Virus record (IMG/VR): IMGVR_UViG_3300050821_009523
Direction: 5' to 3' (one strand)
DNA length: 26,964 bases
From: a virus
Taxonomy: Duplodnaviria; Heunggongvirae; Uroviricota; Caudoviricetes
Under the pieces are notes generated by a model. That model was not told the origin of the DNA. It was given only the letters and a program-made list of their open reading frames with translations, and did no database searches. Every line of letters begins with the position of its first letter. Within the stretch, counting starts at the first letter, position 1. Position numbers and translations under genes: made by a program. This document shows, piece by piece, positions 3,034 to 21,790 of this stretch.

Positions 3034-3614
3034 GGTGCACCGGCCTTGAGTTTAGCTAGCCTTTCGCGATCGGCCTTGATTTTGCCGGCGAGATTCGACA
3101 GCACATAGGACGGAAACGCGCCGCCGGACCGCATCTGCCACGCCGCTACCTGTGCAAGCGAGAGCAGATCGGCTTTCTGCTTCTCGTTAAGCAGCGTCAA
3201 ATCTCCCAACTTGCGGCCGGCACGCACCGCCAGCCGGCAGGAGTCGTTGTAGCGCTTGATCCTGTTGCGCTCACGCTCCCGCTCCTCAATGCGCTCCTCA
3301 AGTTGCGTAATCGCATCGACATCGTCGCTGTAGATCGTACGGTCGAGCTGATGCTCGATGTTGGCAGCGCGCTCGCGGTGCAGCTTGGCCATTTCGGTTG
3401 ATTCCACAGCCGCATGCATTGCCTTGTTGCTACGCTCGATCGCCCTGCGGTGCCGGCTCTCACTGTGGTGGCCCACGAGGATAGGTTGCCCAAGCGGAAT
3501 ACCAGCCGTGGCGCTGTCCGCGTTGGCCAAGGCTGCTGCCGCCTTGCGGTCGCGGCTCTCAGCCCATTCAAGACGGCGCTGTGCGCGCCGCTCCATGCGC
3601 TCGCGTCTGGTCAT
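3018..3614 (-). CDS. DUF3560 domain protein
   Basis: Signature IPLGQPILVGHHSESRHRRAIER and N-terminal RRERMERRAQR. Confidence 0.9.
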   Translation of the reverse strand: MTRRERMERRAQRRLEWAESRDRKAAAALANADSATAGIPLGQPILVGHHSESRHRRAIERSNKAMHAAVESTEMAKLHRERAANIEHQLDRTIYSDDVDAITQLEERIEERERERNRIKRYNDSCRLAVRAGRKLGDLTLLNEKQKADLLSLAQVAAWQMRSGGAFPSYVLSNLAGKIKADRERLAKLKAGAPCATT

Positions 3615-4180
3615 GGCGTTGCCCTGTACCTTTCTAGCGCCCTAGCGGCAAACCGCTCGCAGTCAACTTCGCTGCGGCGCTTGTTGTGCTGGAATTGATA
3701 GATGTGCCTGCTTTCGTGAGCCGCAATGGCCACCAACGCCTCGCGCCAGTTGTTGCAGACGATCAGCGGCGAGCGCTTGCCGCCGTAGGGGTGGCGAATC
3801 GCGCGCGAAACGCGGTGCAGCATTTCGGGCGCCCCAGCCACGCGCTTCATGGAGTAGCATAGCGAGTTGTCGGTGTTGCGGTCAGGAAACTGCGCGCGTA
3901 ACTGATCGAGCGTCAGCCAGTCTGATATCGGCCTCCGGCTGACAACCAAGTTGGTGCATGGAAACTTTTTGTCCGGGCCAACGCGCAGGGTGATCAAGCG
4001 CTCGGCGCTGTGCGCTGCACTGCTCACGCGCGGCACTTGCTCGTACGCGCGGCCAGCGTAGGCACCGGCGCTGTTCTTGACGTGCACCGCAACGCGCGTC
4101 ATGCGGACACCTGCTGTAGCGATCGCCAGCAGGCGCCGCACCTCGTCTGTGGCGAAGCGGCTTGTATTGCGCAGGTACAT
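3611..4180 (-). CDS. Zincin-like metallopeptidase (HExxH), 189 aa
   Basis: AHESRH followed by E in RSEVDCE; start at ATG 4180 via TAATG overlap. Confidence 0.75.
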   Translation of the reverse strand: MYLRNTSRFATDEVRRLLAIATAGVRMTRVAVHVKNSAGAYAGRAYEQVPRVSSAAHSAERLITLRVGPDKKFPCTNLVVSRRPISDWLTLDQLRAQFPDRNTDNSLCYSMKRVAGAPEMLHRVSRAIRHPYGGKRSPLIVCNNWREALVAIAAHESRHIYQFQHNKRRSEVDCERFAARALERYRATP

Positions 4181-17678: not shown

Positions 17679-17754
17679 TGGCGCGGCGTGCGGGGATCGA
17701 ACCCGCCGCTTCCGGGCTACAAGGCCGGCGCGTCACCGTTGGCGCTCCCGCCGC
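17679..17754 (-). tRNA. Degenerate tRNA-Thr(UGU)-like gene, 76 nt, with encoded CCA
   Basis: GCGGCGG/ACGCCGC acceptor, D loop with GG, anticodon arm CCGGC-CTTGTAG-CCCGG, T arm GCGGG-TTCGATC-CCCGC, 3' GCCA; several non-canonical positions. Confidence 0.75.
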
Positions 17755-19165
17755 TCTCGTCGTCGCTGTCTACTGCCTGCGCTTGCGTATCGACGCCCTC
17801 CTCGATCGCGATCCACTCCACAACGCGCTCCGAGAAGCCAGAGATGCGCCGCCAGCCGGCCGACGTATCAATGCTCGGCTTATACGGCGCCACGTTGATG
17901 ATGTAGTTGTGGGTGCCGAGGCGCCGTGCCGTCGCGGGGTTGGCCTTGTGGTCGCAGTCCTGTTCGTCCGTAAAGACGATCACGCGGGCAAACGGCTGCT
18001 CGCCGAGCGTGCGCAGTTTGTCGGCGATCCAGTCCATGCACTGCTTCAGGAAGATGCCGCCACCACCAAGCTGGCAAGGTGCGTGGTGGATCGCATCCCG
18101 CAGGGCAAACCCGCGACGCGGCGGCAGGGCGGCAGTGGCGTGCTGCTGTCGGTGATCGCACCCGCCCGTGGCGTAGATCTCCACGTCCTCGCATACCTCG
18201 CGCACCAGCATCGCTAGCCCGCAGGCCGCATCGATGCGGTCCAGCGTGGACTTGCCGCCAAGCGCGCCGCCCATGCTGCCTGACACGTCCACTACCAGCG
18301 CGGTGCGGCCCGGTAGCTTGGGCATCGCGCCGAGGGACGCGAGCATGGCCTGCTCAAGGGCCGGCTCGTACGCAGGGGCGGCCTTTGCAGCCGCGATGTA
18401 GCGGTAGGGCAGTACCTTGGCATGGGGCGCGCCAGCCACCAGCGCTACGCGCGCGATGCTGCGGTCTACACCTGCCTGCTCCATGTTGCGGAGATTCTGC
18501 AAAAGCGCAGAATAGCCCAGCAGCTTGCCGGCCAATAAGCGCTCCCACGTCGCTTTCTTGTCCGCACCGCTGGAAAGCGCCACCTCCCAGGTGTCGGGGG
18601 CAGCAAGCGTGCCGTCCACGAGCTGCTTCCAAAGTGCGGCTTGCGCCTCGTCCTTGGGCTTGGCGTGACAGAGAAACAGCGCATCCCGCAGCTTCACCTT
18701 GCTGTCGCGGTTCCACTTGGCAAGCTGATACTCGGAGAAGCGCTGAAAGGCGAACGCGAGCCCGCGCTTCACCTGTGCGGCAAGCGGTTGTCGCTTCTCT
18801 TGCCAGTAGAGCGAAAGAAACTCGCTGCACTCGTCCGGCCGGCGGATCACGGCCGCCAGCGTGTCGCCCGCAAGCCGGCTGCCGGGGTGCAGGCGCACCA
18901 ACTGGCGTACGAGGTACAGCGGGACGTGCCGCAGGTGCATGCTGGTGCGCGCCTCAACGGCCAGCGCGGCCAACTCCTCGGGCCGCACCTTGGCGCACAG
19001 CTCGGTGACACGGGCCGCGATGCTGCTGCCTGTCTCGTAGAACGTGTCCTCGAATAGCAAGCACGTCGAGACGGCGCGCCGCAGCTCGGCAAACGCGGTT
19101 TGCGGGCCTGCCTTGGCGCCCTCGTGCGTCGTGGCGGTAGTGCGTGCTGCGGTGTTGGTCTTCAT
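17717..19165 (-). CDS. rsr: Ro60-related TROVE + VWA RNA-binding protein (482 aa)
   Basis: ELRRAVSTCLLFEDTFYE, EARTSMHLRHVP, LAKWNR, VKLRDALFLCHAKP, PDTWEVALS, LLQNLRN, LPYRY, VWA MIDAS-like VVDVSGSM and VIVFTDEQ; GGGAGG RBS before ATG 19165. Confidence 0.95.
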   Translation of the reverse strand: MKTNTAARTTATTHEGAKAGPQTAFAELRRAVSTCLLFEDTFYETGSSIAARVTELCAKVRPEELAALAVEARTSMHLRHVPLYLVRQLVRLHPGSRLAGDTLAAVIRRPDECSEFLSLYWQEKRQPLAAQVKRGLAFAFQRFSEYQLAKWNRDSKVKLRDALFLCHAKPKDEAQAALWKQLVDGTLAAPDTWEVALSSGADKKATWERLLAGKLLGYSALLQNLRNMEQAGVDRSIARVALVAGAPHAKVLPYRYIAAAKAAPAYEPALEQAMLASLGAMPKLPGRTALVVDVSGSMGGALGGKSTLDRIDAACGLAMLVREVCEDVEIYATGGCDHRQQHATAALPPRRGFALRDAIHHAPCQLGGGGIFLKQCMDWIADKLRTLGEQPFARVIVFTDEQDCDHKANPATARRLGTHNYIINVAPYKPSIDTSAGWRRISGFSERVVEWIAIEEGVDTQAQAVDSDDESGGSANGDAPAL

Positions 19166-19193: not shown

Positions 19194-19278
19194 ATCTTGG
19201 TCACGAAAGGAATGGACGCCGGCAGGAGGATCTTCTTAAGAGGAAGTACCTGCAAGCTACGCCATCTCGTGGCCAAGG
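19194..19278 (-). ncRNA. Y-RNA-like unit C (minimal, no tRNA domain)
   Basis: Shared 22-nt motif TGGCGTAGCTTGCAGGTACTTC (19264-19243); closing stems GCAGG/CCTGC, ATGG/CCAT and CTTGG-CACGA/TCGTG-CCAAG. Confidence 0.65.
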
Positions 19279-19292
19279 TCAAACTCTCATAC

Positions 19293-19437
19293 CTTGTCCC
19301 TGGGGGTACAAGCGGGCAGAGTGTCTTGCTCCTGGTGCTCTACCAACTGAGCTAACGGCCTTACGGCCGTGGCGGACTCGAACCGCCGACCCCCAGGTCC
19401 AGTGAAGTATCTCTGCTCTACGCCACCCAAGGGCAAG
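19293..19437 (-). ncRNA. yrlA: YrlA-type Y RNA with circularly permuted tRNA-like domain (unit B)
   Basis: 5' GGGTGGCGTAGAGCAGAGATACTTC; CCTGG, T arm GGCGG-TTCGAGT-CCGCC, acceptor stem ACGGCC-GTAA-GGCCGT, D arm GCTC-AGTTGGTA-GAGC, CCAGG; 3' CTCTGC...CTTGTACCCC; adjacent to the Ro60 gene. Confidence 0.9.
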
Positions 19438-19455: not shown

Positions 19456-19537
19456 GCTTAACGGCGCGGGTACAAGCGACGCGAGGGGTTTTCTGCCAAA
19501 GAGAAGTACCTCGAATCTGCGCCACGCACCGCCAAGC
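19456..19537 (-). ncRNA. Y-RNA-like unit A (minimal, no tRNA domain)
   Basis: Motif TGGCGCAGATTCGAGGTACTTC (19524-19503), 3' CGCTTGTACCC as in unit B; outer stem GCTTGGCGGTGCG/CGCGCCGTTAAGC. Confidence 0.75.
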
Positions 19538-19543
19538 GGCGGC

Positions 19544-19573
19544 AGCGTACCAGTTTCAACGTGCGGCTGTCAA
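19544..19573 (-). promoter_or_regulatory. sigma70-type promoter for the Y RNA-Ro60 unit
   Basis: TTGACA (19573-19568), 18 nt, TACGCT (19549-19544) with TG extension; the predicted start (~19537) coincides with the 5' end of unit A. Confidence 0.72.
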
Positions 19574-20635: not shown

Positions 20636-21790
20636 TCACGCCGCGTACCGCAGGAGCGCCGAGCCGCGCTGCTCTAGCGCCAGCCGGTCGTCTTGGTGCT
20701 GGATGCTGCGCGCCTTGGCCGTGACGCCCTGCACGATCTGCCAGAGCGTGCGGGCGTCGCCCTCCTCGGCCTTTGCGCTTTCGATGATCTGCGTGGCCTC
20801 ACCCTTGGCGAATGCCTGCTTACGCAGCCACGCGATCACCTCGTCGTCCGTGTTGCCGAGTTTGAAACGGCTGGCGGCTTCTAGGCGACGCTTCACGTCC
20901 TGGACGCTGGCGTCCGCATACTTGGCCAGCATGGGCTGTGCCTCGCGCCGGAAGCGGTCCGGGCCGCCGGCCGTGTGCCGCACAGTGAAGGTCTTGACCT
21001 CCTCGGCGCCCCAGATCGTGCGGTTGTCGCAGCAGTAGTCGTACAGGAAAGTCATCAGCCCAAACGTGGCGCTGCCCACCTCGCTATTCCACGTAATGAA
21101 GCCGCGGTGCAGGTTGCGCACGCCGTCGCCCTCCAAGCGGATCTCCACGTCATGCGCCTCGTCCACCAGAAAGATGAAGCAGTCACGGTCGCTGGCGTAC
21201 AGTGTGGTGGCGCGCTGCGGGTTCTGCGCCTTGTAGCTCGCGCTTGGCACATGCCAGCGGCCGTCTTGGTTGACGTCGATCACGGCCTGCACCACCTCGC
21301 GGTCGTAGATCCGGCCGTAGTCGCGGCCCGTGATGCAGCGCAGGGTGTCGATTGGTGGCCGGCCGGCCTGCTCCCAAGCCTGCAACTCGGCCTCGGTCGT
21401 AGCCATGGGGCCATTCTCGGCCATGATCTGCACCGAGTCTTTGGCGGCGAGCATCTGGATGCCGTAGTTGAGGGCATAGGATGCGAGCGATGGGCCGCCC
21501 GTGTGCGTGCCGATCGTACGGAGCCACTTGGCGGGCACCTGCGCCATGCTGGCCAACTGTCCAAACGACCAATGTGTTGGTGCCAGCATCCCCATCTCGG
21601 TGTCGATGAGCAGCTCACTGCCGGCCTTGTCCTCGCCCTGCACCTTGAAGTGCTTGTTGGGCGTCACCTGTACCTCGCAACGCTCGGCGCGCGCCGTGAC
21701 GGCGGCTAGCAGCGATTCGAGGGTGAGGTAGCGCTCGTCTGCTGGACGTGCGGCCCACTGCGCCGATGCGATACTGAGATCCTGTGACAT
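20636..21790 (-). CDS. DUF932 family protein (384 aa)
   Basis: WAARPADERY, LRCITGRDYGRIYD, LYASDRDCFIFL, RGFITWNSEVG, CCDNRTIWG, RHTAG; GGGAGG RBS. Confidence 0.85.
   Translation of the reverse strand: MSQDLSIASAQWAARPADERYLTLESLLAAVTARAERCEVQVTPNKHFKVQGEDKAGSELLIDTEMGMLAPTHWSFGQLASMAQVPAKWLRTIGTHTGGPSLASYALNYGIQMLAAKDSVQIMAENGPMATTEAELQAWEQAGRPPIDTLRCITGRDYGRIYDREVVQAVIDVNQDGRWHVPSASYKAQNPQRATTLYASDRDCFIFLVDEAHDVEIRLEGDGVRNLHRGFITWNSEVGSATFGLMTFLYDYCCDNRTIWGAEEVKTFTVRHTAGGPDRFRREAQPMLAKYADASVQDVKRRLEAASRFKLGNTDDEVIAWLRKQAFAKGEATQIIESAKAEEGDARTLWQIVQGVTAKARSIQHQDDRLALEQRGSALLRYAA

Follow-up and report, generated by a model that had tools for sequence, protein, structure and literature searches.

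The RNA encoded on the minus strand between 19437 and 19293 of the window (the whole 26,964-nt stretch of DNA that was analysed), here called module b, is very probably a Y RNA of the YrlA type. It would act in trans, docking the phage Ro60 protein (Rsr) on a GGCGUAG/CGCUUGUACC loop and presenting a sealed tRNA elbow to a partner. The initial annotation had proposed a YrlA-type, circularly permuted tRNA mimic at this site, a claim supported by the Rfam model, by covariation, by re-permutation of the head and by an adjacent same-strand TROVE gene. The element comes from a tailed phage genome. The virus record containing the window is 97,023 bp long and complete by CheckV; genes for a large terminase and a portal protein lie near the array, the portal having 25-28% identity to those of Pseudomonas, Xanthomonas, Stenotrophomonas and Bordetella phages. 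The features of the region are collected in Table 1.

Table 1. Features of the Y-RNA array and its surroundings in window coordinates. A1, A2 and R1 are the two alignments and the covariance model described in the text.
Feature	Position	Strand	Evidence or remarks
Putative array promoter: TTGACA 19573-19568, 18-nt spacer ending TGg, TACGCT 19549-19544	19544..19573	(-)	Predicted from the sequence
Module a, minimal, without tRNA domain: GGCGCAG ... GGUACUUC hairpin ... CGCUUGUACC	19457..19535	(-)	R1 65 bits, E 6e-16 (in seed); A2 covariation as independent support
Module b, YrlA-type Y RNA: basal stem, putative Rsr-binding loop, inner stem, permuted tRNA-like head	19293..19437	(-)	RF02553 48.4 bits; R1 43.2 bits, outside seed; A1 covariation
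Basal stem of module b, CUUGCCCUUGGG with CCCAGGGACAAG	19437-19426 with 19304-19293	(-)	12 positions, 11/12 paired, one C.A, one G.U
5' strand of presumed Rsr/Ro60-binding site, UGGCGUAGA	19417..19425	(-)	Variant of published GNCGAAN0-1G motif (Chen 2014)
Inner 6-bp helix, GCAGAG with CUCUGC	19416-19411 with 19321-19316	(-)	
CCUGG (tRNA positions 39-43) paired to CCAGG (positions 27-31)	19397-19393 with 19335-19331	(-)	
Variable loop GGGUC, 5 nt, with C48	19392-19388	(-)	
T arm, GGCGG-UUCGAGU-CCGCC	19371..19387	(-)	Helix 3 100% paired; both-side changes in 4/5 pairs
Closed acceptor-like hairpin ACGGCC-GUAA-GGCCGU, 6 bp; GNRA tetraloop GUAA 19364-19361	19355..19370	(-)	
U8-A9 (19354-19353) and D arm GCUC-AGUUGGUA-GAGC (19352-19337)	19337..19354	(-)	Helix 5 100% paired
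A26	19336	(-)	
3' strand of presumed Rsr/Ro60-binding site, C-CGCUUGUACC	19305..19315	(-)	A1 columns
Module c, minimal: GGCGUAG ... GGUACUUC hairpin (loop CUCUUAA) ... CGUCCAUUCC	19197..19275	(-)	R1 62.1 bits (in seed); A2 covariation
rsr, phage Ro60 orthologue, TROVE + vWA, 482 aa; ATG at 19165 preceded by GGAGG	17717..19165	(-)	
tRNA-Thr(UGU)	17679..17754	(-)	ARAGORN; Rfam tRNA 30.4 bits vs cut-off 29

Anatomy of the RNA and its relation to YrlA

Module b is read from the minus strand, from 19437 down to 19293, and the strings quoted in the initial annotation are the reverse complement of the plus strand. Its elements follow one another as basal stem, putative Ro60/Rsr-binding internal loop, 6-bp stem, CCUGG, 5-nt variable loop, T arm, 6-bp acceptor-like hairpin with a GUAA cap, U8-A9, D arm and CCAGG. 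This is the order that had been claimed, GNRA-sealed acceptor included, and every listed element was found on that strand. In tRNA numbering the head runs through 39-43, 44-48, 49-65, the closed 66-72/1-7, U8, A9, 10-25, A26 and 27-31. It has a Y stem in place of the anticodon loop and no CCA end. The nucleotides for the tertiary contacts are all available in the window copy (U8:A14, the G15:C48 Levitt pair, G18G19 with U55C56, U54:A58 and the UA linker), and on this reading of the sequence the D-loop/T-loop elbow of the head can form.

The putative binding site begins with a U followed by GG paired with CC, and G20-C124 closes it; pairs 14-147, 15-146 and 21-138 were kept in 12/12 aligned sequences. 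The internal loop is asymmetric, with CGUA on the 5' side and GCUUGUA on the 3', 7-nt side. Above the inner helix, AUAC (19410-19407, minus strand) opens a 13-nt/9-nt internal loop below the head. In the Rfam alignment, 3 bp of the CCUGG/CCAGG stem plus position 26:44 are paired.

We compared the RNA with the Rfam YrlA model (RF02553) by Infernal, a check that had been suggested along with the annotation. In a 1-kb search the model matched 19417-19312(-) over its full length (positions 1-114) with 48.4 bits and E 1.4e-9, a score below the curated gathering cut-off of 69 bits. In the whole 97-kb genome module b was the sole match (E 3.3e-11). An Rfam scan of the window at the gathering threshold gave only the tRNA; the default scan missed the YrlA match because its score lies below the 69-bit cut-off, and it appears when E-value thresholds are used. 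The elements of related phages and of Xanthomonas phage Olaya scored 24-50 bits against RF02553, likewise under 69. The whole phage clade thus sits below the curated YrlA threshold of Rfam, which is a scoring limit and no feature of the structure.

The operational definition of Chen et al. (2014) was applied with the Rfam model instead of the authors' own models: module b is the best match in the genome, on the same strand as a TROVE gene and well within 4 kb of it (128 nt). The T arm, closed acceptor-like stem-loop and D arm occur in the YrlA 5'-to-3' order with tRNA-like loops. The sequence motifs deviate from the published ones. The 5' motif is GGCGUAG, with U in place of A compared with GNCGAAN0-1G; among 28 aligned modules this variable position is A, U or C, with GG(C/U)G and AG near-invariant. 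The window's AUAC has A, not a pyrimidine, as the first base of the published YUAY, and its UAC is invariant in the alignment of YrlA-like elements.

Neither ARAGORN nor the Rfam tRNA model called a tRNA at 19293-19437. With its acceptor closed by GUAA and its anticodon loop replaced by the Y stem, module b does not qualify as a functional tRNA. We then re-permuted the head in silico by cutting within the GUAA loop and joining CCAGG to CCUGG via a 7-nt placeholder; ARAGORN called the product a tRNA, which directly demonstrates the circular permutation.

Thermodynamic folding was less informative. The minimum free energy (MFE) structure had -63.0 kcal/mol and the cloverleaf-constrained fold -62.5, a gap of 0.5 kcal/mol, and the z-score against shuffles was only -2.56. 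The plain MFE fold recovered the T and acceptor-like hairpins; the D arm and the CCUGG/CCAGG stem were not recovered, the D region pairing otherwise, though the cloverleaf came within the gap given above. Thermodynamics alone is indecisive and does not single out the cloverleaf.

Covariation in relatives and the tandem array

Eighteen viral contigs were retrieved with the Rsr protein (42-53% identity). A sub-threshold YrlA match lay less than 600 nt upstream of rsr, on the rsr strand, in 11 of these 18, and comparable matches were found in the cultured Xanthomonas phage Olaya. RNAalifold, run on an alignment of 12 YrlA-like elements (A1), recovered the basal stem, the GG/CC and G-C pairs, the inner helix and the stems of the T arm, the acceptor-like hairpin and the D arm; 26 of the 31 pairs showed compensatory changes. 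Paired cells made up 95.1% of A1, against 65.4% after shuffling and 37-47% with the partners slid; the structure was derived from A1 itself, which makes the slid control somewhat generous, and the margin is still large. The covariation score was 0.83 against a comparison value of 0.23. The acceptor-like helix (helix 4) was 98.6% paired, with all 6 of its pairs changed on both sides, and by our reading of A1 GNRA caps are present too in L002, L006b, L007, L016 and L017.

The invariant columns of A1 are the tRNA tertiary nucleotides, UAC, the 5' signature UGG.G..G and the 3' signature CG..U.U.CC. They comprise U13, G14, G15, G17 and G20 in the 5' strand UGGCGUAGA; C124, G125, U128, U130, C132 and C133 in the 3' strand C-CGCUUGUACC; G53-U54-U55-C56-A58 in the T loop; and U8, A9, G10, A14 and A21 in the D region.

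A second alignment (A2) held 16 minimal modules from the window and its relatives. Its scaffold was 86.7% paired versus 60.9% after shuffling, with both-side changes in 16/17 scaffold pairs. From minimal non-tRNA modules only (those of the relatives and the two that flank module b in the window) we built a covariance model, R1, which found 37 modules in the window and 17 loci, all on the rsr strand. Module b, absent from the seed, was matched end to end at 19293-19436(-) with 43.2 bits and E 1e-9. A search for modules with regular expressions had been too noisy, and the covariance model was used instead.

Because the R1/A2 scaffold is common to all modules, the outer stem is the regular basal stem of every module. 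It had been annotated as an extra outer stem, but it covaries in tRNA-like and simple modules alike and is the normal basal stem of a Y RNA; a role in processing is possible. The CUUGUAC strand had been likened to the 3' strand of the Ro-binding helix. This was a reasonable reading: the strand belongs to a conserved two-stranded internal loop in which CG(C/U)UUGU(U/A)CC stands opposite GUGG(C/U)G(N)AG in 28/28 aligned modules. We also considered Watson-Crick pairing within this loop, between the C of GGCG and the G of UUGUU, and rejected it, as several modules have A there with the C kept.

Module b is the middle one of three tandem Y-RNA modules with a common scaffold, which are followed by rsr and a tRNA-Thr; the initial annotation of module b mentioned neither this array nor the phage origin. 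The flanking modules a and c carry the 5' GGCG(N)AG ... GGUACUUC and 3' CG...UUCC signatures and no tRNA-like head. Their apices are 4-bp hairpins with 7-nt loops (CUUUGGC and CUCUUAA) formed by a conserved ACUUC motif. The ATG of rsr lies on the same strand, 128 nt downstream of module b and 31 nt beyond the end of module c. The putative promoter is placed just before module a, and similar TTGACA promoters (alike in position and -35 box) precede the arrays in L003, L007, L012 and Olaya. A strict sigma-70 consensus scan called no promoter at the array; nor, on the minus strand, did the scan find any terminator-like site between the modules and rsr. The three modules, the rsr mRNA and tRNA-Thr are probably on one transcript, to judge from this arrangement.

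The rsr product is matched by Pfam TROVE (E 9e-13) and, over its full length, by phrog_850, 'RNA-binding protein' (E 6e-42). Its best match among solved structures is phiRo60 of Thermus phage phiLo (9KOP/9L5Y, E 1e-22, residues 9-453 aligned). The DxSxS motif of the vWA MIDAS is kept as DVSGS, and the alignments with the Rsr relatives start at residue 1. In the phage collection, 84 records have a Ro60 homologue, among them crAss001, CcrColossus, Rhizobium jumbo phages and Streptomyces phages.

Some further features of the neighbourhood were recorded. The tRNA-Thr(UGU) gene has 78% GC and shares its 5' end with the final 38 nt of the rsr frame, so that the rsr stop falls inside the tRNA. Real tRNAs (Gly, Trp, Thr) are found directly downstream of rsr in relatives too. 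The string CUUGUA recurs in three places, namely the 3' Rsr-site motif CGCUUGUACC, the tRNA-Thr(UGU) anticodon loop and the V-hairpin loops of relatives, possibly by coincidence. Upstream of the array, a 384-aa ORF (20636-21790, minus strand) has a match to phrog_1362 (unknown function, E 4e-35) and a weak one to DUF932.

The position of the array raises the question of whether it works chiefly in cis as the leader of the rsr mRNA, with Rsr binding hairpins in its own 5' UTR and autoregulating translation or stability, and with the tRNA-like head serving only to stabilise the RNA. Indeed, all three modules follow the putative promoter and precede the rsr start, with module c close to the ATG and no terminator intervening, and nuclease protection by a stable tRNA fold was listed as a possibility by Chen et al. 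(2014, PMC4201824). [quoted passage not shown] The Y RNAs of Salmonella lie downstream of rsr and act in trans, and Yrl1/2 of phiLo bind phiRo60 as free RNAs (PMC12135203). We consider a mainly cis-acting array very improbable; a cis-regulatory role is compatible with a trans-acting Y RNA as an added role.

The perfect tRNA core could also suggest that tandem tRNA genes are decaying here to a relic, or that a permuted or split tRNA gene yields a working tRNA after processing, in either case with no Y-RNA function. Acceptance of the re-permuted form by ARAGORN, ARAGORN calls over parts of the relatives' modules and a real tRNA nested in the Y scaffold of L003 would fit such an origin, as would the literature finding that RNase P cleaves M. 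smegmatis YrlA and that CCA is added to this RNA. Against this, module b has no anticodon loop, a 6-bp acceptor closed by GUAA and no CCA, and its tRNA-like domain sits within a scaffold whose conservation and covariation extend over 37 modules, always next to rsr. A neutral relic is excluded because compensatory changes occur across relatives of 42-53% identity, and we regard this explanation as a whole as scarcely credible.

Head variety and proposed function

The heads carried by the common scaffold vary across the clade. The types found are the permuted tRNA core with a two-stranded anticodon-like stem (module b), a permuted tRNA that has a hairpin like an anticodon arm, a T arm by itself, an entire tRNA nested in the scaffold, a bare hairpin resembling an anticodon loop, and a non-tRNA CGGAAGCGGGC...GCAGCGCACGA head. 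The window copy has no hairpin before the T arm, so two head architectures of the permuted tRNA coexist in the clade.

In several relatives the hairpin before the T arm resembles a full anticodon arm, with a 5-bp stem, a 7-nt loop with U33 and R37 and then a 5-nt variable loop. The anticodon-loop-like 7-nt loops include CUUGUAA and CUGUUAA. ARAGORN reported 'tRNAs' over the 5' half of YrlA-type modules at L002 2348-2421, L003 2131-2200, L013 1901-1974, L015 2059-2127 and L019 2257-2330, the five calls being Thr-UGU (three times), Asn-GUU and His-GUG. For this V hairpin we considered both an anticodon arm and a class-II variable arm.

Other modules depart further from YrlA. At L003 2369-2480 a Y scaffold (GGCGUAAG, a UCUUAG/CUAAGA stem and GAUUGUUCCC) carries a complete tRNA-Met(CAU) head in normal order (Rfam tRNA, 53 bits). 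The Y modules at L004 2280-2382 and L005 2378-2466 share a non-tRNA head made of a conserved CGGAAGCGGGC, a hairpin and GCAGCGCACGA, to which no known family could be assigned. In Xanthomonas phage Olaya (MW802488, L022), five tandem Y modules occupy 3500-4110 (minus strand) in a 700-nt unannotated gap upstream of a 'hypothetical protein' that is an Rsr homologue. Three of them are YrlA-like, and among these one has a D arm of the Glu type and another an acceptor stem of 4 bp capped by UUCG. Of the other two modules, one carries only a T arm and the last is minimal.

In this phage clade the Ro60-binding stem could be a modular display scaffold, built as tandem arrays of 2-6 modules with one covarying stem/loop and interchangeable heads, by which one phage Ro60 would be coupled to several host RNA/tRNA machineries or would act as a decoy for them. 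We put this forward tentatively and as rather unlikely. If it is true, the sealed-acceptor elbow of module b would be one such adaptor during infection.

For module b itself we propose the following course as a YrlA-type Y RNA. Transcription would start from the TTGACA/extended -10 promoter (about 19573-19544, minus strand), with module b the second of three modules. In each module the paired 5' and 3' ends form the basal stem, followed by a conserved asymmetric loop with 5' GG-CGNA-G facing 3' C-GYUUGUN-CC. This loop is the counterpart of the bulged helix that binds Ro60 in other Y RNAs, and the Rsr ring should dock there. Above it come a variable helix of 6-8 bp and then the head, which may undergo processing and modification of the TruB/Dus type. 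By analogy with Deinococcus Yrn1, Salmonella YrlA and phiLo Yrl1/2, the RNA may serve to tether Rsr or to gate it, linking it to a partner in RNA processing. For this partner, host PNPase is the best documented candidate, and an elbow-binding tRNA enzyme would be the other. In infection the outcome might be a redirection of host RNA decay or surveillance. In the case of Yrn1, deleting the T arm left complex assembly with PNPase unchanged (Chen et al., 2014, PMC4201824).

Anticodon nucleases usually target the anticodon loop, and acceptor-modifying toxins the 3'/acceptor end. The initial annotation had suggested that the Ro60-tethered elbow could be a decoy for elbow-recognising proteins or tRNA-targeting toxins. 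As a decoy or sponge, it would shield the tRNAs of host or phage from defence toxins that target tRNA, or titrate an elbow-binding host factor. The core of this idea was already proposed by Wang et al. (2018, doi 10.1101/312249) in the form of an elbow-recognising tRNA-binding effector, and an elbow-specific partner is predicted there. The phage context is in line with a decoy, as are the tRNAs clustered around rsr here and in related phages; a better fit would be the relatives' copies in which a 7-nt loop resembling an anticodon loop (such as CUUGUAA) precedes the T arm. Module b, however, is without an anticodon loop and without a free 3' end, which limits the idea, and PNPase is the only partner documented for a phage Ro60-Y RNP (PMC12135203). 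A decoy is in our opinion improbable.

Module b is a real small non-coding RNA of a described class and adds a member to a known family, whose architecture and phage setting, together with much of what the initial annotation had inferred, are already in the literature. By itself it changes nothing in what is known of YrlA architecture; the modular array with its varied heads is the more interesting aspect. Two points go beyond the single RNA. A whole clade of phage Y RNAs falls under the YrlA threshold of Rfam and is missed by it, and the unannotated five-module arrays in cultured Xanthomonas phages offer a tractable system for the role of the phage Ro60-Y RNP in infection.

Comparison with known systems

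YrlA-like RNAs were described by Chen et al. (2014, RNA 20:1715, PMC4201824) less than 4 kb from Ro60 genes and on the same strand in 254 bacteria and 22 phages; the same work defined the GNCGAAN0-1G and YUAY motifs and showed modification by TruB and DusA. The crystal structure of the Salmonella YrlA head, a permuted tRNA with a closed acceptor loop, was solved by Wang et al. (2018, doi 10.1101/312249). Module b shares with YrlA (RF02553; Salmonella Typhimurium YrlA, PDB 6CU1) the Rsr-binding stem, the T arm, the closed acceptor-like hairpin, UA and the D arm, as well as the conserved tRNA tertiary nucleotides, UAC before the head, a Ro60 orthologue on the same strand within 4 kb and the occurrence in phages. 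It differs in its score (48.4 bits against the 69 cut-off) and in having GGCGUAG in place of GNCGAA(N)G. In Salmonella and M. smegmatis YrlA, Chen et al. (2014, PMC4201824) could make out the 5' strand only; here the 3' strand CGCUUGUACC is conserved as well. Further differences are the 6-bp GNRA-capped acceptor-like stem, a clean 5-bp anticodon-like stem, a 5-nt variable loop with no V hairpin, and a location upstream, not downstream, of rsr.

A similar setting is that of Thermus phage phiLo, for which a 2025 report (NAR 2025, PMC12135203) describes two Y-like RNAs upstream of Ro60 that bind phiRo60 and form a ternary complex with host PNPase. Yrl1/Yrl2 and phiRo60 resemble the present system in being phage-encoded, with several Y-like RNAs directly upstream of the Ro60 gene, and in a stem/internal-loop/stem build with a CGAA-type motif. 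The passages of that report consulted here mention no tRNA-like domain in the phiLo RNAs, whereas module b has one. phiRo60 and the Rsr of the window are distantly related, and binding and PNPase recruitment are results obtained with phiLo, where our case is argued from sequence.

Yrn1 of Deinococcus radiodurans, which tethers Rsr to PNPase in the Rsr-Y RNA-PNPase complex (RYPER) and is the model for such tethering, likewise has both strands of the Ro-binding helix conserved and a T arm. It differs from module b in the reverse orientation of its T and D elements and in a doubtful D arm, and Yrn1 is thought to have evolved independently (PMC4201824). Finally, the tRNA-like domain of tmRNA, the TLS of plant viruses and mascRNA share with module b an L-shaped tRNA core with a T-loop/D-loop elbow. 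Their 3' ends are free, processed or chargeable, whereas in module b the acceptor stem is sealed and the elbow sits on a putative Ro60-binding stem.
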